64,000 bases of DNA, taken from the NCBI GenBank assembly GCA_044356295.1, contig JBIKWN010000007.1:1-64000 (forward strand), written 5' to 3'. A program made the position numbers and the translations under genes. This DNA comes from Bdellovibrionota bacterium. Lineage in GTDB: Bacteria > Bdellovibrionota_C > UBA2361 > JBIKWN01. This document shows positions 50,892-58,762 of the stretch, one piece after another. Position 1 is the stretch's first letter. The number at the start of each line of letters is the position of its first letter. Below the pieces are notes generated by a model. That model saw only the letters and a program-made list of their open reading frames with translations. It made no database searches and had not been told where the DNA came from.

Positions 50892-51539
50892 ATGTCCAAA
50901 GAGAAGAAAATAACGGATTTACAGCTTATAAAGGCGTTTAACCAGGGTTCAACTGACGCATTTGAAGAGATTTTATCCAGGTATCAAGAAAAGGCTTTTA
51001 ATCTTGCTATGCGGTTTGTAAAAAACCAAGAAGATGCAGAAGAGGTGCTTCAAGATGTTTTTACAACACTGTACCGTAAACTGCATGCATTTGAAGGTAA
51101 ATCTGCCTTCTCAAGTTGGCTTTACCGCATTGTTGTGAATGCTTCTTTTATGAAGCTTCGTAAAAAACGACAGACTCCAACATCACATTTAGAGGATCTT
51201 TCTCCAATTGTACAAGCAACAGTGCTTGAACGTGAAGAGATGATGCCTGAGAAAACAGATACATTCACAGTCGCACGTGAGATACGTGAGTCCCTACAGT
51301 TAGCTATTAGCAAATTACCAGATGAATATCGTTCAGTGTTTGTTCTAAGAGACGTTGATGGTTTATCAAATCAAGAAGTAGGTGAAATTTTATCTCTAAC
51401 CATTCCTGCAGTGAAATCAAGATTACACCGTTCACGTTTGATGCTTCGAAAGAAACTGATCCGTTTTTATGAGGAGTTTTATGGAACAAAGTATGTTCCA
51501 ACGGACGATATGAACCTGGATAGCTTTGATGAACTATAA
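50892..51539 (+). CDS. ECF sigma factor (RpoE/SigW-like)
   Basis: DAEEVLQDVF, F.GKSAFSSWLYRIVVN, LPDEYRSVFVLRDVDGLS..EV..IL.....AVKSRLHRSR. Confidence 0.93.
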   Translation: MSKEKKITDLQLIKAFNQGSTDAFEEILSRYQEKAFNLAMRFVKNQEDAEEVLQDVFTTLYRKLHAFEGKSAFSSWLYRIVVNASFMKLRKKRQTPTSHLEDLSPIVQATVLEREEMMPEKTDTFTVAREIRESLQLAISKLPDEYRSVFVLRDVDGLSNQEVGEILSLTIPAVKSRLHRSRLMLRKKLIRFYEEFYGTKYVPTDDMNLDSFDEL

Positions 51540-51752
51540 GAGAAGAATTTAAATGCTTAAAAAAGAATAACTCTTTACGTGGAGTTCTTTCAAGATACGA
51601 TTTTTACTTTGCAAACGTGTTCAGGAATAGAATTATTGTTTTATTGTTTGTTCTATATTTAAGAAATTTTTTTTAAACCAATAAAAAAGCTGTTGTCATA
51701 ATTCACTTCTTCATTTAATTTGGTAATAGGTTATCAAATCTTGGGGGAGAGT

Positions 51753-52184
51753 ATGAATTTTCTTACCATTGAGGTTTCAGATCCTCAGGTTTCCGGTGGT
51801 GCCATTACACTTTGCGGCGGTTCTTTAGACGGCGAACTCTTTTCATCAGGCTCTGCTGTTTTTGTACGGGGGGATAACGTAACGTTTCAAAAGAAGTATA
51901 AAAAAAACCTACCTTCATTACATCCTGTAGAACCTCTTCCCACAGAAGAGGTAAACCAAAATAGCGCTGTAACACTTAGTAACGATATTTTCGTTCATGG
52001 GTTTTGGGTTTTACATCGAACTATTGTAAGAGGATTCCCTGCTGTAATCTGTAGTTACTTCAATAAACGAACCCAATCTATTGAGCAGCGATATCAAAAG
52101 ATTTTCTATAAACCTGGAAGATACTGCTGTGGTCCACGGTTCCACAAAAAGAGTTTTTATCCTTCAACGAAAACTTCTTCTTAA
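51753..52184 (+). CDS. Hypothetical protein
   Basis: GGGGGAG RBS before ATG 51753 (ORF track start 51720); no family recognised. Confidence 0.45.
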   Translation: MNFLTIEVSDPQVSGGAITLCGGSLDGELFSSGSAVFVRGDNVTFQKKYKKNLPSLHPVEPLPTEEVNQNSAVTLSNDIFVHGFWVLHRTIVRGFPAVICSYFNKRTQSIEQRYQKIFYKPGRYCCGPRFHKKSFYPSTKTSS

Positions 52185-52241: not shown

Positions 52242-52568
52242 TTATTCTTTGATTTTTAATACTTTTATAAGTTTATCTCTGATTTCAGCGTTATCAAGAA
52301 TAATTTGGATAAATTGATTTTTTTCCTGGGCAGAAATCTGTGATTCCGAAGAGGTTTCTAGCAATACTCGATTAGCAATCTCCTCAACTGCTGCTTCAAT
52401 GGAGACAAACTCTTGGTTAAGCATTGAATCAATATGGTCACTCCAAAACTTATCGAGATCCGACATATCTCGACTCGCTGTTGAATCAAAGGGCTTTGTT
52501 GTGAATTCAGTTTTACGAATCGGAGTAGATACTGAAGTGATTTTTTTTGTATTCTCTTTTTTATTCAT
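52242..52568 (-). CDS. Hypothetical protein, last gene of T3SS-like operon
   Basis: 8-bp overlap with the TPR gene; disordered N-terminus, helical acidic C-terminus. Confidence 0.65.
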   Translation of the reverse strand: MNKKENTKKITSVSTPIRKTEFTTKPFDSTASRDMSDLDKFWSDHIDSMLNQEFVSIEAAVEEIANRVLLETSSESQISAQEKNQFIQIILDNAEIRDKLIKVLKIKE

Positions 52569-53115
52569 TTCTATACACGCTTACTTTACTTAAATTATGA
52601 AGAATTGATGGCTCAGGCTGCAAGACAAGAGCTTCTTCTAAATATTGTTTCGCTCTTATTTTATTAAAGTTTCCACCTTTTTCATAAGAAAGAGCAGCAA
52701 GATTATTTCTTGCTGCTACATCGCTTGGATCAATCGCTGTGGCTTTTTGATATAGATGTTGCGCTACTTTCTTATTTCCTTGCTGGTCATAAAGATATGC
52801 ATACCGATTTGCAAGTGGCTCATAACTTGGAAACCATTCATTCAGCGAATCAAGAATACTTTTAGCCTGTGTATATTTTCCTGCACGCAGATACGTACAA
52901 GCAAGCCCATCATAACCTTCTGGTGTCGCTTGATGTTCTAACGCCATCTGAAAACTTGCTTCTGATAAAGAATATTGTCCAAGCTCAAGAAATGCGACAC
53001 CTCTATCAATCAGTTGCTGTGTTTGGAAATCAGGAGTTTCTCGAACATAGGTCCCACAACCTAATAGTGCGCCCATTACTATGACCAGTATGCTATGCGG
53101 CAAGGAGCAATTCAT
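52561..53115 (-). CDS. TPR-repeat lipoprotein
   Basis: Lipobox LLGC; TPR-type G.A.L..G.Y..S...F..AL, Y..A..IDP....ARNNLA. Confidence 0.8.
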   Translation of the reverse strand: MNCSLPHSILVIVMGALLGCGTYVRETPDFQTQQLIDRGVAFLELGQYSLSEASFQMALEHQATPEGYDGLACTYLRAGKYTQAKSILDSLNEWFPSYEPLANRYAYLYDQQGNKKVAQHLYQKATAIDPSDVAARNNLAALSYEKGGNFNKIRAKQYLEEALVLQPEPSILHNLSKVSVYRNE

Positions 53116-54955
53116 CTTCTACCTCCACATCTTTTTTTTCTATTGATATTTTCGATACTACTTCTAAATTCAAATGAGGCATAACTTCCGTATGAGTCAT
53201 TACTGGAATTATACACCCATAAGCTCGCAACCATTCTGAGATAGGCCTTCGAATTGATTTTGGTACAAGCAAGCAATCAATCGAAGGTGCAAGATGTTGC
53301 AATGAAGCTTTCAATGAAAGTATTACTGAAACATCAATTACTCCATCAATCCATGGAAGCGATTCATAGCAATCATTTAAGAGAGCTACACGAAGAACAT
53401 CATCAGGCATCTGAGTAGAACGCTTGCCTATAATTCCAGCACACAGATAGCGCTTCATATAACTTCTTAGTTCCTCGGATAATGGTTTATCGACTCCAGA
53501 TCTGTCATGGAGTTCAGCGATGCCTTGTAAAACCACATCAAATGGGCGAAGCGATATTTCCTCTTGAGCTAGTGCACGAAGTACTTCAGTAAAGCGGGTA
53601 AGACTAACAATATGAGGCACCACCGTCGTTGCAAGCTCAGTCATTTGTGGCTCATGGAAATCCAATAACTTCCTCGCCGTAGTATCATCAATAAGCTCTG
53701 TTCTATTAGTAAGGCAAAAAACTGTGATCATTTCTTGCAACAATTCTATTTGATCAACGGTTAAAAGTCTTTTTATTACAACAACACCTCTCACTTCAAG
53801 CACAACATAATCTTCTTGATGTACTTCTATTGGAACACTTGAAAGTAGTATTCCCGAGCTTTCAAAAACATTCTTTCGTGCATTTTCTATTTGTTGTTTT
53901 GCAGGCAAACCAATTAAAACTTTAGGCATTCGTATGAGCAATAGTGGCACTGCCTTAGGTTGAAATGGTAAAATGATAGTATCGTTCATTGCTGGAATTA
54001 CTTCTTGAGATTTTACAAATTGCAATAAGAAAAGTAGCCCTGCAGAGATAATAAGTGCAAGTTTAGGAAAACCAGGAATGCAAGCAATTCCTAACAGAAT
54101 ACATGCTCCTATTCGTAACATGATTTTCGATCGAACAACTTGATCAATTAATTCAATACTGAGACTTGCATTTTTACCCCCTGCTACTCGAGTTACAACT
54201 AATCCCGCTGCTAATGAATTAAGAAGCGAAGGAATTTGAGAAGCTATTCCATCACCGACAGTCAATACAGAGTAATGATGAATCGTATCAGCAAACGACA
54301 TACCACTCATTATTCCAGTCAGAACGCCGCCTATGCCGTTAATGACAACGATACACATAGCAGCAATCGCATCACCTTTAACAAATTTCATAGCGCCATC
54401 GAGGGCACCGTAAAATCTGGATTCAAGTTGTAAATCTTGTCTTTTTTGACGAGCTGTTTGCATATCATACAAACCTGCTCGTACATCAGCATCAATCGCC
54501 ATTTGCTTTCCAGGGAGCGCATCCAAAGTAAAACGTGCAGCAACTTCTGCAACTCGTTCACTCCCCTTTGCTACAACTATAAACTGTATCAATGAGAGCA
54601 TAATAAAAATTATTATCCCTACTCCGACGCTTCCTCCAAGAACAAAAGAACCAAACGACTCAATAACATTTCCTCCCACACCATAGGTGAGGATCATTCT
54701 TGTCGAAGTTACATTCAGACAAAGGCGAAATAAGGTACTGAGAAGTAAAATAGTAGGAAGCGATGAGAGCTGCAATGAATCCGTTAATTGCAGGGTTACT
54801 ACAACTAATCCAATAGCTATAATAAAGTTCAGAACCAATAAAATATCTAATAAAAATACTGGTAGCGGCACCAAAAGTGAAGCCACTACCAGCATAATGA
54901 TTGCGGGAAATATATATTCTCTAATCGATACAAACGACGAAGTCATTTTATCCAA
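53093..54955 (-). CDS. sctV: FHIPEP-family type III export gate, SctV-like
   Basis: PT.LLLSTLFRL.LNV.STR.IL; KGSERVAEVAARFTLDALPGKQMAIDAD; DGAMKFVKGDA (SctV-type rather than FlhA DGASKFV.GDA); divergent cytoplasmic domain. Confidence 0.85.
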   Translation of the reverse strand: MDKMTSSFVSIREYIFPAIIMLVVASLLVPLPVFLLDILLVLNFIIAIGLVVVTLQLTDSLQLSSLPTILLLSTLFRLCLNVTSTRMILTYGVGGNVIESFGSFVLGGSVGVGIIIFIMLSLIQFIVVAKGSERVAEVAARFTLDALPGKQMAIDADVRAGLYDMQTARQKRQDLQLESRFYGALDGAMKFVKGDAIAAMCIVVINGIGGVLTGIMSGMSFADTIHHYSVLTVGDGIASQIPSLLNSLAAGLVVTRVAGGKNASLSIELIDQVVRSKIMLRIGACILLGIACIPGFPKLALIISAGLLFLLQFVKSQEVIPAMNDTIILPFQPKAVPLLLIRMPKVLIGLPAKQQIENARKNVFESSGILLSSVPIEVHQEDYVVLEVRGVVVIKRLLTVDQIELLQEMITVFCLTNRTELIDDTTARKLLDFHEPQMTELATTVVPHIVSLTRFTEVLRALAQEEISLRPFDVVLQGIAELHDRSGVDKPLSEELRSYMKRYLCAGIIGKRSTQMPDDVLRVALLNDCYESLPWIDGVIDVSVILSLKASLQHLAPSIDCLLVPKSIRRPISEWLRAYGCIIPVMTHTEVMPHLNLEVVSKISIEKKDVEVEDELLLAA

Positions 54956-55247
54956 CTCTAATATTTCTTACTGGTGCCATTTGAGCTTCATGTTTTGACT
55001 TCAAAACGTTCGATACCATCGACACTTCCATCATCTCCTTCTGCATTTGCATCTGCAGTCCAATCAAATTCGAATAATCCCCGGTTACACCAGTTGCTGC
55101 GGAGGAAGCAGCACCGGCAACTCCTCCTAAAAGTGATTTTGCAAACTCCATTGCTTGAGAGTAAGCAGTACTTACAGCTGGCTTAGGAGGAATTCTTTCC
55201 ATCGGGTCAAACACTTGGGAAGGCTTTTCGAGCGAAACAGTAGTCAT
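54948..55247 (-). CDS. Small needle/inner-rod-like (SctF/SctI-like) protein
   Basis: 99 aa; C-terminal LIGLQMQMQKE....SMVSNVLKSKHEAQMAPVRNIR resembles the needle-subunit C-terminal helix; located between sctQ-like and sctV. Confidence 0.5.
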   Translation of the reverse strand: MTTVSLEKPSQVFDPMERIPPKPAVSTAYSQAMEFAKSLLGGVAGAASSAATGVTGDYSNLIGLQMQMQKEMMEVSMVSNVLKSKHEAQMAPVRNIRVG

Positions 55248-55789
55248 ACATGATCCTTTAAAAAAATATTATCGAATATGGTTCGACAAGAATATTTTGA
55301 AAGTTTCTCAATTCGACCAACTATTTTTCCATTAATACAGGTAAACAACGCTCTGCCCAAAGGTAATCCATCTGCAAAAACATACGTTGTCATATTGTAA
55401 AAATTAGGAATTTTTAGATCTGTACCGCTTCCAATCCTTGAAAGATCTTCACAAGAAATCGTTTGTTGAAAAAGTGGCGCATGACAACGAATAGTTGGTA
55501 CACGTGGTTCAATCACAAGAAGCGGATCCAACTCAACGGTTGATAAAAGTAACGAATCGTTATCGACTAATCCCCGCAGAGAAAAAATACTACTCGATGT
55601 TTGTTCATACAATGTATGGACAAAAAACTGCTCAAAAAGAAGACTTTGCTGAAGGGTTATGACTGCCGATAACTTTAGATGATTTTTAAACATCGAGTTC
55701 TCTGGAACAATATCTTGCTCATCTTGCTGCTCGCCATAAGTCAAAATATCAATCCAAGCAGAAGGAATTTCTTCAATTGAGTTACACAC
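55244..55789 (-). CDS. Divergent SpoA-domain (FliM/FliN/SctQ-like) protein
   Basis: C-terminal EDLSRIGSGTDLKI...VFADGLPLGRALFTCINGKIVGRIEKL fits the SpoA pattern L..L..G..L.L...V.ANG..IG.GELV.I.G..GVRI. Confidence 0.55.
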   Translation of the reverse strand: MCNSIEEIPSAWIDILTYGEQQDEQDIVPENSMFKNHLKLSAVITLQQSLLFEQFFVHTLYEQTSSSIFSLRGLVDNDSLLLSTVELDPLLVIEPRVPTIRCHAPLFQQTISCEDLSRIGSGTDLKIPNFYNMTTYVFADGLPLGRALFTCINGKIVGRIEKLSKYSCRTIFDNIFLKDHV

Positions 55790-56519
55790 GAAGCCCCCTA
55801 CTTCGACGAGAAACTACCATCATAAAAACGCCTATTATTGCGACAATTGCAGCTAAAAACGCATCCATCCCTCTAAAAATTCCCTTATCGCCAAATAATG
55901 TCTGATTAATTTTTTCAATGACTTTTTGATCAGTATGTATAGATTTTTGAACTGCTATATCTTCATTTTTAATAATTACTTCGATGGTATTTATTGTAAT
56001 GCCGCTTGCTCCCGAGACGAGCTTCTTAATTTCATCTTGGGTTACTGCACATGTTCGTGCGCACTGCAGAACGACACTGGCAGAACTTTTAGTTGCGCCT
56101 TGTGAACCAGTAAATTCACTCATAACAGTATGAGGATCCGACGAATTCAGAAAAAGACGAACATCGAGGACTCCTCCAAAACTTTTTAATGTATCCTCTA
56201 TGTTTCTAATTAATGATCGCTCTTGAATCCGGCGTTCTGATTCAGCCGAAGGGAATAAACTATCCCTTGAATCGTCACTACTACTTTTATCTGGAAGCAA
56301 CCGATACTGAGATACTATTTTTCTTGCACTCATTTGATAGTCAGCTTCGACTAATAATCGAATTTGAGATGCTCCTTGTTGCTCTTGAGAAACAGGAATA
56401 CCTGCATCTGATAATAGCAAAACGATACGATTGGCATCCTTGACGGTTACATCTCTGGCAAGTTCTTGACGACATCCAAGCAACGTCATCAATGAGATAC
56501 ATACTATGATTATTTTCAT
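55782..56519 (-). CDS. sctJ: Type III secretion inner-membrane ring lipoprotein, SctJ/YscJ-like
   Basis: Lipobox LLGC; EL......DANRIV.LL..AGI; SLFPS...ER; IE.TL..F.GVLDVR; SASVV; IK.LVSGA; C-terminal TM. Confidence 0.82.
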   Translation of the reverse strand: MKIIIVCISLMTLLGCRQELARDVTVKDANRIVLLLSDAGIPVSQEQQGASQIRLLVEADYQMSARKIVSQYRLLPDKSSSDDSRDSLFPSAESERRIQERSLIRNIEDTLKSFGGVLDVRLFLNSSDPHTVMSEFTGSQGATKSSASVVLQCARTCAVTQDEIKKLVSGASGITINTIEVIIKNEDIAVQKSIHTDQKVIEKINQTLFGDKGIFRGMDAFLAAIVAIIGVFMMVVSRRSRGLRV

Positions 56520-57223
56520 ATATCTCCTGATTTCATTTTTTTTCTTAGCAGATCAGCAAGCTGATCGAGCGCACGACTATGAAGCCTACTTACCCACGAT
56601 TTAGAAAGTTCGGGGCGAAGTTTGATAATTTCTTGAAAACTAAGACCATCAAAGTAATGTTTCTCTACAATAAATCTTTCTTTTTCAGGTAAGCTCCTGA
56701 CAACTTTCCTCATCTCTTCCGTTTTTTCAAGTTTAAGTATTGCTGCTTCTGCAGAAGGATACTGCTCGGCTTTTTGTTCGAGCAGATCTTCAGGGTTTGA
56801 ACCGTGCATTCGAATTGCTAAAAATCCACGAGCTGTGAATGAAAATATTTTACTTAAAATTTCCCGATCACTGTTACTAGCTTCAGCAATCGAAGTAACT
56901 AAATCTTCCTCGACTACTTGAAGCGAACGGACAGCTTTAAGAACATGATATGAGGTGCCTCGGACTTCTGAACTGCGGCGTATCAGATCCAGCACTGCCC
57001 CCCTGACTCTGCGATGGGCAAAACCCTCAAAAGACACCCCATGGGACTCATCAAACCGCTCAGAAGCCTCAATAAGCCCCATATAACCAGCTGAGAGATA
57101 CTCATCTAGGTCTTCACGCTTTAAACCAAACCTTTGGATCACTGCCAAAACCACCCTTTTAACGAATGGGTCATATTTTTCGATGAGCGTTTCTCTTGGA
57201 TCAGACATTTGCACTGCAAGCAT
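56516..57223 (-). CDS. FliA/WhiG-like group 3 sigma factor
   Basis: DEYLSAGYMGLIEASERFD...GVSF..FA..RVRGAVLD..R; region 4 LPEKER......YF..LS..EI....LSKSWVSRLH.RAL. Confidence 0.88.
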   Translation of the reverse strand: MLAVQMSDPRETLIEKYDPFVKRVVLAVIQRFGLKREDLDEYLSAGYMGLIEASERFDESHGVSFEGFAHRRVRGAVLDLIRRSSEVRGTSYHVLKAVRSLQVVEEDLVTSIAEASNSDREILSKIFSFTARGFLAIRMHGSNPEDLLEQKAEQYPSAEAAILKLEKTEEMRKVVRSLPEKERFIVEKHYFDGLSFQEIIKLRPELSKSWVSRLHSRALDQLADLLRKKMKSGDI

Positions 57224-57415
57224 ACAAATAATTCGTAGTTAAGTTCTAAAAAGTTTCCTAAAAAATACCTAATATTTTCAAAAAGATATCTGGCTTTAGA
57301 AATTGAGCCTAAAAATAATTTGCATTATGCCAACTTAATTTTGCTCCCAAATATACAGACACTGGCTTTTTCGAGCGAAACCTACTCTTACACCGCAGAA
57401 GTAAAAGGAAGTTTC

Positions 57416-58762
57416 ATGAAGTACATATCAAGGAAGGTTGTATTGGGAATTGGGTTAGCGCTCTTCTCTGCAACTGGACTCCTCCAAGCTGAAGAATGCA
57501 AAAAAGATAGCGTTGTCTTGCAACATCTTCACCGCACAGCTAATCAACAAGAAGTCAAAGATCTGAATAAAATTGTTCATTTTTCACATCGCTCTGGTCG
57601 CGCATTGGTTGGTGAATTAGCAAGACGTTCCAGTAACCACGGACAAGATGTTTCTTGTAATGAAGTTGAAAACGCTTGTCGTAAACTTGTTCGTGAATCT
57701 CGTAAAGGTGGATTTTCAAACTTTCGAAGAGCAAAAAGTTTTGCCTGCAGTGCTAACTATAAAGTGTATACAACGGGGAATAAAAAACGTTGGAAAAGTC
57801 CAATCAATGATCCTCTTGGCAAACAACTACGATATGCCATTGATTCATTAAATCTTTCACGTGCATGGCAGATAACAAATGGTTCTGAAGACGTAGTAGT
57901 TGCAGTCATTGATACAGGAGTCGATTATACTCACCCTGATTTAGCTCAAAATATTCTTCCTGGAAAAAACTTTGCGATTGGACTTTCAAGTGAAGATCCT
58001 CGGTCAAATGATCCAATGGATGATAATGGTCATGGAACTCATGTTAGTGGAACGATTGCTGCAGTGGGGAATAATAGAATCGGTGTAGCCGGAGTTGCAT
58101 GGAATACTAAAATACTTCCATTAAAATTCTTAAATGAAAGTGGCTCAGGATATTTATCCGATGCAGTGCGTGCTATTAACTATATGGTTTATGCCAAACA
58201 AAATCTTGGTATGAATATAAAGGTTTCAAATAATTCATGGGGTGGCGGTAGTTTTAGCGATAGCCTCTATGCAGCAATTTCGATGGCAAATGATGCAGGT
58301 ATTCTTTTTATTGCTGCAGCAGGAAATGATGCAAATGACAATGATGAGTATCCATCCTATCCAGCAAGCTATAAATTACCGAATGTAACTAGTGTAGCAG
58401 CTTATGACGACACACTTTCATTGGCCTATTTCTCAAACTATGGAAAGAGAACAGTTGATATTGCAGCACCAGGATTAAGAATCGCGAGTGCTTATCCAGG
58501 TGGATATGCATTTCTTTCAGGAACTTCCATGGCAACTCCACATGTAAGTGGTGCCCTTGCATTACTCACATCTGCATATCCATCGTTAAGCGCACAGGAA
58601 CTGAAAGCAAGATTAATTGAAACTGCACGGTACAATTCTGAACTGAGAGGATATGTACGAGACGGCGCGCAACTCAACGTTCTCAATATGCTTCGTAACA
58701 GAACGTCTCAAAATTATGAGTCAGTTCGGCAATTAAAGTTAAAAGGAAAGCGCGGTGCTTAA
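57416..58762 (+). CDS. Secreted S8 subtilisin-like serine protease
   Basis: AAAGGA RBS and signal peptide from ATG 57416 (track start 57320); VAVIDTG / HGTHVSG / GTSMATPHV. Confidence 0.92.
   Translation: MKYISRKVVLGIGLALFSATGLLQAEECKKDSVVLQHLHRTANQQEVKDLNKIVHFSHRSGRALVGELARRSSNHGQDVSCNEVENACRKLVRESRKGGFSNFRRAKSFACSANYKVYTTGNKKRWKSPINDPLGKQLRYAIDSLNLSRAWQITNGSEDVVVAVIDTGVDYTHPDLAQNILPGKNFAIGLSSEDPRSNDPMDDNGHGTHVSGTIAAVGNNRIGVAGVAWNTKILPLKFLNESGSGYLSDAVRAINYMVYAKQNLGMNIKVSNNSWGGGSFSDSLYAAISMANDAGILFIAAAGNDANDNDEYPSYPASYKLPNVTSVAAYDDTLSLAYFSNYGKRTVDIAAPGLRIASAYPGGYAFLSGTSMATPHVSGALALLTSAYPSLSAQELKARLIETARYNSELRGYVRDGAQLNVLNMLRNRTSQNYESVRQLKLKGKRGA

Follow-up and report, generated by a model that had tools for sequence, protein, structure and literature searches.

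A sigma factor-led operon in an uncultured Bdellovibrionota lineage as a candidate part of a dispersed, secretin-less type III secretion-like system

Introduction

The evolution of type III secretion systems (T3SS) is usually told as a history of two branches, the flagellum and the injectisome, with the systems of Myxococcus as an intermediate. Here we analyze a stretch of 64,000 nucleotides (the window) from a Bdellovibrionota bacterium (assembly GCA_044356295.1, contig JBIKWN010000007.1, positions 1 to 64,000), in which seven genes of the minus strand, headed by a gene for a FliA-like sigma factor, form an operon of T3SS-like parts. Judged from gene content and phylogeny, the operon is probably one third of a conserved, dispersed and secretin-less T3SS-like system with its own lineage of the export-gate protein SctV (FHIPEP family). 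Below, G000 is the genome of the window and C18 the contig of the operon; other G numbers are genomes of relatives, and L numbers are fetched loci.

Secretin-less T3SS loci (the 'short' and 'long' Myxo non-flagellar (NF) T3SS) and a needleless T3SS* are described from Myxococcus (Abby & Rocha 2012, PMC3459982; Herrou 2025, PMC12075869), and T3SS* acts with the Tad-like Kil pilus (PMC12075869, PMC12428579). The Myxococcus loci resemble the present system in being non-flagellar and from a predatory-type lineage, in being devoid of genes for a secretin, tip or translocon, in the presence of an export gate, ATPase, SctJ and inner rod, in their long-term conservation, and in the occurrence of a Tad-like system in the same genome. 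There are also differences. Seven Myxococcota-type SctV proteins that were scanned score 782-825 bits on the hrcV model, above its cut-off, whereas the window type scores 438-508; the sampled Myxococcota SctV lie in the known NF clade, whereas the window type forms a clade of its own. Unlike in Myxococcus, the window system is spread over three loci, its SctU is split around a kinase gene, its SctV is missing part of the cytoplasmic domain, and a sigma factor gene heads its operon.

In chlamydiae, an orphan 'flagellar' flhA (CT060) adjoins a sigma-28 gene (PMC10597470). At the chlamydial loci L161-L166, a short FHIPEP gene (578-605 aa) is followed by a same-strand sigma-28-family gene in 6/6. 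Relative to flagellar FlhA, the chlamydial and window-type proteins lack the same three segments, which is to be read as a resemblance only. In 6/8 window-type proteins scanned, the top alignment to the chlamydial model PRK05910 covers almost its whole length, and that of ordinary SctV/FlhA its N-terminal half only. However, their PRK05910 scores of 225-277 bits are far under the cut-off of 670 (258 bits for the window protein itself), and the chlamydial order is FHIPEP then sigma; the 1.5-kb flanks of the chlamydial loci showed neither SctJ nor SctQ nor a 99-aa gene. A specific tie between the chlamydial and window-type SctV was considered and rejected, as the two are not joined in the tree, where the chlamydial branch is very long. 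One Chlamydiales metagenome-assembled genome (MAG; G124) had no short FHIPEP.

With the flagellar apparatus and its FliA, the window system shares a FHIPEP gate, FliP/Q/R/FlhB-type parts, a FliH/FliI-type ATPase pair and a sigma-28-type promoter. Unlike the flagellum, its gate scores 391 bits on the FlhA model (cut-off 772) and falls outside the flagellar clade, its ring is made of a SctJ-type lipoprotein and not FliF, and a separate, complete flagellar set is present in the same genome. With classical injectisomes (Ysc, Inv-Spa, Hrp, chlamydial Cds) it shares homologues of SctD, I, J, L, N, Q, R, S, T, U and V; in contrast to them, it has no secretin at its loci and no recognisable needle, tip, translocon or gatekeeper, its genes are dispersed, and its SctV lies outside the NF clade. 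The literature on type III secretion in Bdellovibrionota, Bdellovibrio, Bacteriovorax and Oligoflexia yielded no description of such a system, which the wider literature or supplements may hold.

The operon and its probable completing loci

The features of the operon, all on the minus strand of the window, are the following.

52242-57223, minus: seven-gene operon; open reading frames (ORFs) head to tail on one strand, every one intact
57232-57258, minus: sigma-28-type promoter motif GGAAACTT-N15-CGAA, ending 8 nt ahead of the ATG of the sigma gene
56516-57223, minus: divergent FliA/WhiG-like sigma factor, 235 aa (Sigma70_r2 46.5 bits, Sigma70_r4 26.7 bits)
55782-56519, minus: SctJ-like inner-membrane-ring lipoprotein, 245 aa (lipobox LLGC and C-terminal membrane helix)
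55244-55789, minus: short SctQ-like (SpoA) protein, 181 aa (positional orthologues, ESM Atlas, weak profile match)
54948-55247, minus: 99-aa helical protein, candidate needle/inner-rod (SctF/SctI-like) export substrate (size, predicted helices, marginal PDB match)
53093-54955, minus: short SctV/FHIPEP export-gate protein, 620 aa (Pfam FHIPEP 444.5 bits)
52561-53115, minus: TPR lipoprotein, 184 aa (many TPR matches; lipobox)
52693-52717, minus: terminator-like hairpin (10 pairs) within the TPR gene; the internal motif at 52674 follows closely downstream
52648-52674, minus: possible internal sigma-28-type motif, 80 nt ahead of the 108-aa gene, which may be due to chance
52242-52568, minus: 108-aa protein of unknown family (basic N-terminus; conserved helical C-half; position kept in relatives)

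A first-pass annotation of the window had reported seven co-oriented genes overlapping by 4-23 bp, and the ORF coordinates bear this out: the successive overlaps are 4, 8, 4, 8, 23 and 8 bp, sizes that depend on the choice of the first possible start codon (TTG for the FHIPEP gene). The GC content is even along the operon (0.36-0.42). Contigs of an independent lake-water metagenome run (X2) span 5/6 operon junctions with 0 differences, the TPR/108-aa junction being outside their coverage, and the arrangement is therefore not an artefact of assembly. Profile scans name four of the seven proteins, namely the sigma factor, the SctJ-type lipoprotein, FHIPEP and TPR; the 181-aa, 99-aa and 108-aa proteins have no match of their own in Pfam or NCBIfam.

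The annotation had also found no sctR/S/T/U, sctN, sctL, sctD or secretin gene in the window. In agreement, genome-wide family searches placed no FliP, FlhB, T3SS ATPase or secretin gene on C18; SctS, T, L and D had no genome-wide search of their own. The genome (2.96 Mb in 128 contigs) nevertheless holds 3 FHIPEP, 3 YscJ/FliF and 3 FliP genes and 3 FlhB-type sets (2 of them split), and its T3SS ATPases number 2 only. One complete set, on contigs C128 and C67, is flagellar. Two further loci hold parts that the window is without.

C71 locus, G000 C71 (L037:1059-7227), orthologues L038-L041: SctI-like, 239-aa unknown, SctR, SctS, SctT, SctU-N, kinase, SctU-C and SctD genes
C38 locus, ATPase at C38:8446-9711: FliH-like (SctL) gene upstream of the ATPase gene; the locus adjoins murJ

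The gene contents are complementary. The window has SctJ, Q and V without R, S, T, U, D, N or L; C71 has I, R, S, T, both parts of U, and D without J, Q or V, in G000 as in G015; C38 has L and N; and C94, a further non-flagellar cluster described below, already has a J and a Q of its own. It is because of these complementary parts, a common promoter, the phyletic pattern and joint loss that we join the window operon with C71 and C38. On this evidence the operon is probably locus 1 of a three-locus, non-flagellar T3SS-like apparatus that would be ancestral to a phylum-level lineage.

As for the phyletic pattern, the window-type FHIPEP and the C71-type (middle-scoring) FliP occur together in 9/10 genomes examined. 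The single-contig genome G040 is without the window-type FHIPEP, the C71-type FliP, SctJ and the 99-aa gene, and keeps the C100-type FHIPEP and C94-type FliP of the other non-flagellar set. In family f21 the operon is without the SctQ gene, and there is no SctN-type ATPase in 2/2 genomes; joint loss of SctQ and SctN is expected if SctQ, SctL and SctN work together here.

The C71 gene products score 165 bits (FliP), 54 bits (Bac_export_3), 32 bits (Bac_export_1) and 106 bits (Bac_export_2, with a separate C-terminal piece). Weak PF17001 matches are found in 3/4 orthologues of the SctI-like gene, and the SctD is of the FHA type. An unusual feature is SctU, encoded by two genes that flank a histidine kinase gene (1074 aa, PAS-GAF in G000). 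A kinase gene of 579-1074 aa lies between the two halves in 5/5 genomes, with PAS-GAF domains in the two scanned. The split falls at the position of the NPTH site, the autocleavage site, of the flagellar FlhB of the same genome: the N-piece ends in '...SKVIIV' and the C-piece opens with the counterpart of '(NPTH)YSIAL', and NPTH as such has been lost. By Pfam the C71 gene set is identical in G015; by tblastn most C71 parts, in the same order, are found in G010 and G020, and the G008 locus shows only SctU-N, kinase and SctU-C. The C71 239-300-aa protein has only chance-level Pfam matches, as has a ~70-aa gene in relatives mentioned below (E 0.04-0.14). At C38, the ATPase scores 388.7 bits on TIGR01026 (FliI/YscN), above the cut-off of 379.5, and the G015 orthologue of the FliH-like gene matches PF02108.

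The core set of a non-flagellar T3SS was taken as sctC, J, N, Q, R, S, T, U and V. SctR/S/T/U come from C71 and SctN from C38, and we infer their membership in the window system. Each of 5/5 genomes has two secretin genes, none of them at or near the operon, C71 or C38; the system might use a distant secretin.

The completing loci alter two earlier proposals. The system had been called reduced, but C71 and C38 bring it to nearly all basal-body, export-gate and ATPase parts; completion by a second locus, offered as one possibility, is what was found at C71 (plus C38). The other possibility, that flagellar FliPQR/FlhB/FliI are borrowed, is unlikely, since dedicated copies exist. In its full form it would make the seven genes a stand-alone minimal module with no dedicated SctRSTU/SctN, as the absence of R, S, T, U and N from the window and the presence of a full flagellar cluster on C128 and C67 would allow. 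We consider such a module very improbable, given that the dedicated R/S/T/U set on C71 has the same promoter and that G020 and G022 keep the operon with no flagellar-type FlhA or FliP match (FliI is also lacking).

Phylogeny and features of the export gate

The window FHIPEP is below the cut-offs of both the NCBIfam SctV model (438 bits, cut-off 692) and the FlhA model TIGR01398 (391 bits). Window-type SctV proteins are without ~45 residues of the cytoplasmic domain (435-480 of the flagellar FlhA of the same genome) and two shorter stretches; the ~45 residues are presumably subdomain 2 of the cytoplasmic ring, part of the chaperone-docking site. The FHIPEP loop residues are invariant across 23 sequences.

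A tree including myxobacterial and chlamydial sequences had been suggested as a check. We made a FastTree tree of 97 FHIPEP proteins and two IQ-TREE trees under the posterior mean site frequency (PMSF) model, of 46 and 45 proteins. In all of them there are four groups: flagellar, known non-flagellar, window type and C100 type. The window FHIPEP is outside the flagellar clade (support 100* and 91) and is excluded from the known NF clade (96* and 98*), which comprises Myxococcota, Chlamydiales, Yersinia, E. albertii, Pseudomonas and rhizobia. The window type and the C100 type each form a clade with support 100*, and the two pair at 80-93, outside the flagellar and known NF groups. These are single-gene trees with long branches, and the deep branching order in them is provisional. 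Placement of the window SctV in the flagellar or the known injectisome clade is not supported by the trees.

The earlier description therefore stands: the gene set derives from a T3SS, is divergent and, with SctV outside the flagellar clade, non-flagellar, and the uncultured lineage is flagellated, with the flagellum on C128 and C67. The window protein is one of three FHIPEP genes and not a sole, flagellar-type FlhA, as had been raised as an objection, nor do the additional sct genes elsewhere make the system one of a described type.

Near the base of the known NF clade is a 619-aa short FHIPEP at L092, from a MAG called Deltaproteobacteria bacterium, which scores 622 bits on the SctV model and may be yet another short-SctV lineage.

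A second non-flagellar set linked to Tad genes

The genome has another set of non-flagellar T3SS-like genes, at two places.

C94 cluster, G000 C94 (L010:311-8158), also G015 L044: two FHA/SctD-like, SctJ, ~75-aa, SctQ, SctR, SctS, SctT-like, truncated SctU (N-part only), ~85-aa and TPR genes
C100 FHIPEP, 700-721 aa, G000 C100 (L009:9418-19062), also G015 L045: within 6-54 bp after tadZ/rcpC/tadA/tadB/tadC-type genes

The C94 cluster contains no SctV or ATPase of its own, and the C100 FHIPEP is likely its SctV. Downstream of the latter gene comes a large one of HEAT or kinase-like type. In 5/5 genomes checked the genes run TadC-FHIPEP-large protein, with TadB upstream in the four whose stretch reaches far enough. 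This operon link between Tad and a T3SS gate resembles Myxococcus Kil plus T3SS*. An SctV within a Tad-pilus operon in 5/5 genomes provides independent genetic support for a Tad/T3SS partnership, so far described from Myxococcus only.

The window operon might pair with the C94 cluster instead of C71, or the three non-flagellar loci and the Tad-linked C100 SctV might be one larger machine. The lack of an SctV at C94, the single non-flagellar ATPase for two sets and the sisterhood, at moderate support (80-83 in the two IQ-TREE trees), of the window-type and C100-type SctV clades would all suit such an arrangement. We think it unlikely: the SctJ and SctQ of C94 would duplicate those of locus 1, no sigma-28-type motif shared with the three loci was seen ahead of the C94 or C100 operons, and G040 keeps the C94-type FliP and C100-type FHIPEP without the window-type genes.

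The sigma factor, ring, pod and small proteins

The operon sigma has regions 2 and 4 and scores 99 bits on the FliA/WhiG model TIGR02479, under the cut-off of 189.6; a separate canonical FliA is encoded on C128 (247.7 bits). The SctJ-like lipoprotein is above the cut-off of YscJ_FliF PF01514 (35.4 bits, cut-off 24.4) and below that of SctJ TIGR02544 (54.6 bits, cut-off 162), and matches to it are found in 40/41 genomes of the order. Assignment of the 181-aa protein as SctQ-like is based on its positional orthologues, which have a FliMN_C match in 7/8 scanned (5 above cut-off), on an ESM Atlas lead (SepQ_C 0.89) and on a weak profile match (E 0.011). Most relatives have, in place of this lone gene, a 205-344-aa SctQ-like gene and an additional ~70-aa gene.

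The 99-aa family comprises 107 clusters, all with the source name 'hypothetical protein' and no Pfam domain (0/13 members with a Pfam match). The N-half is variable and the C-terminal helix conserved (consensus '...VSxxSNIxKSxHExxMAxxRNIR'). The model is a helix hairpin, with one helix at 27-47 and a long one at 54-98 (predicted local distance difference test score, pLDDT, 84-90 in the long helix; mean of the whole model 65). Foldseek gave no match to the model, and a wide VIA fold search gave only generic long helices (Z 5.3-5.6). Against PDB profiles, its one suggestive match is marginal, at E 0.11; it is to chain F (43 residues) of 7y6c, an entry whose title names a T3SS needle protein co-chaperone. 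With modest confidence, the protein is predicted to be a needle/rod-class export substrate.

The TPR protein has a lipobox-like cysteine in 13/13 orthologues, and among named families it comes closest to TPR lipoproteins of the pilotin type, PilW for example (45 bits, far under the cut-off). For the 108-aa protein, Pfam and NCBIfam offered no family and the Atlas only unnamed clusters. From the hairpin and internal motif in the TPR gene, its gene may have its own transcript.

The presence of a sigma gene in the operon raises another explanation, a regulatory or checkpoint device in which the export gate would control the sigma as FlgM export controls FliA, with the 108-aa or 99-aa protein as the exported anti-sigma factor. 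The sigma gene heads the operon in 12/12 relatives' loci, a sigma-28 gene stands after the short FHIPEP gene at 6/6 chlamydial loci, and the 108-aa gene may have its own motif. However, neither small protein has a FlgM-like family match, and a full set of ring, gate and ATPase would be costly for regulation alone; we regard this device as quite improbable.

Conservation and range

The operon is conserved in relatives of different families. By tblastn the sigma, FHIPEP and TPR genes are in unchanged order in 12/12 loci, the 99-aa gene is found in 11/12 and SctJ in 10/12, the remaining two SctJ being matched by HMMER. This provides the synteny check that had been called for; the synteny extends across about 36 families. 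A profile of the 99-aa protein finds 113/124 phylum genomes, all labelled as of the same order or the same class, and 72/73 of those of high quality; of the negatives re-examined, 3/5 hold a window-type FHIPEP cut by a contig end. The named relatives are MAGs called Bdellovibrionota, Bdellovibrionales, Oligoflexia or Deltaproteobacteria bacterium, and no cultured organism was seen among them.

Decay, which had been considered for these genes, is argued against by the conserved order and 99-aa marker. That the operon is the remnant of an old injectisome or second flagellum is hardly credible. All scores are under curated equivalog cut-offs, SctQ is shortened in G000 and SctU is split, as a remnant would be expected to show. 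But all ORFs are intact, the synteny is wide, core FHIPEP residues are invariant and the SctU split is kept in 5/5 genomes.

Promoter motif

The strict motif GGAAACTT-N12-16-CGA[TA] has 23 sites in the genome, against 1-8 in 10 shuffles, and 5/23 are at the operon, C71 and C38. Three of these stand immediately ahead of the loci, at a distance of 8 nt from the ATG of the sigma gene and of 9 nt from an ATG of the SctI-like gene and from that of the FliH-like gene. The other two are ahead of the SctU C-piece on C71 and inside the TPR gene, ahead of the 108-aa gene. No sigma-70-like site was found in the intergenic stretch upstream of the operon. By eye, the motif or a lineage variant of it precedes the operon in about 11 relatives, among them G002, G003, G004, G006, G010, G011, G017, G020, G024 and G036. 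In G010 it is also found ahead of both SctL and the C71-type operon, in G017 ahead of SctL and in G020 ahead of the C71-type operon. It resembles the FliA site of Bdellovibrio attack-phase promoters, TTAAG-N16-CCGATA, present in 92/140 of them (PMC3627812).

Proposed function of the three loci

In the three-locus apparatus, locus 1 would supply the sigma factor, the ring and pod proteins (SctJ and SctQ-like), the gate (SctV), a small helical protein for export, a TPR lipoprotein of the periplasm and the 108-aa protein. Locus 2 (C71) would supply an SctI-like rod, SctR/S/T, the two-gene SctU around a large sensor kinase and an FHA-type SctD, and locus 3 (C38) SctL and the SctN ATPase. Assembled, the parts would form an export machine of the inner membrane, equipped with a short rod or needle in the periplasm and with no dedicated secretin. 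The machine may be switched on with a sigma-28 ('attack-phase'-like) regulon and tuned by the embedded kinase, and may release proteins into the periplasm or pass them on to a different machine of the envelope, as has been suggested for the needleless T3SS* of Myxococcus. Our best guess is that a short rod or needle, and substrates directed to the periplasm or handed over, would be exported during an attack-type programme. A role in prey contact is a guess from analogy, and the suggestion made earlier of a role in predation or host contact is pure conjecture.

Several points weigh against joining the three loci in one machine. The link between them is drawn at the level of genes, and the FliP types are separated by score only. 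About 8 fragmentary genomes with the 99-aa marker have no high-scoring C71-type FliP, and there is one non-flagellar ATPase for the two non-flagellar sets. The needle/rod nature of the 99-aa protein is weakly supported, with the E value of 0.11 and uninformative fold searches. A canonical FliA is present in 5/5 genomes tested and could read the motif in place of the operon's sigma. Finally, the motif also precedes other genes: it lies 6-12 nt before the ATG of ComF-like, RadC(-like), pilin, T2SSE ATPase, ComM-like and lytic transglycosylase genes, 33-51 nt before flagellin and RecA genes, and ahead of several unknown genes. Eight such sites in G000 are these.

C12:41673, C21:16323, C51:17615, C70:42822, C76:19350, C119:80244, C104:19261 and C33:8544: motif sites outside the three loci

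Since the motif precedes so many other genes, the three loci belong in a broad sigma-28-type regulon, which from its members looks like a competence/pilus-flavoured 'attack' regulon. That many sites end 6-12 nt before an ATG suggests near-leaderless transcripts. With a canonical FliA in all genomes tested, the motif may be read by FliA, the operon sigma or both. G020 gave no match for a flagellar-type FlhA or FliP but nonetheless encodes a canonical FliA (251 bits), which would fit a global regulator with a role beyond the flagellum.

The motif is also found 20-52 nt upstream of four ORF6N-domain paralogues (C38:58134-58691, C128:93185-93742, C117:12825-13340 and C70:142694-143179).

Significance

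The phylum-level lineage adds two further non-flagellar sets whose SctV lies outside both the flagellum and injectisome branches. The engineering of the window system is unusual, with three loci, an SctU split at the usual cleavage point with a kinase gene in between, a missing SctV segment and a sigma-led operon, and makes it possible to test in what ways gate docking and substrate switching can be rebuilt. It is also relevant to the question whether bacterial predators generally use T3SS machines that have no secretin.

A bolder view, which we hold only tentatively and find rather doubtful as a whole, is that the window-type system, the Tad-embedded SctV set and perhaps the chlamydial flhA-sigma-28 pair are T3SS lineages that split before or beside the flagellum/injectisome divide. 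The window system would then be a secretin-less periplasmic exporter with a pre-cleaved SctU switch under direct kinase control and a sigma factor wired in, fired in the attack programme of uncultured freshwater predators.

Neighbouring genes

Downstream of the operon are genes for an extracytoplasmic function (ECF) sigma factor and a 154-aa unknown protein, and two enzyme genes are found on its other side.

50892-52184, plus: ECF sigma factor gene and 154-aa unknown gene
57320-58762, plus: subtilase (S8) gene, divergent from the promoter region of the operon
61793-62926: MltA lytic transglycosylase gene

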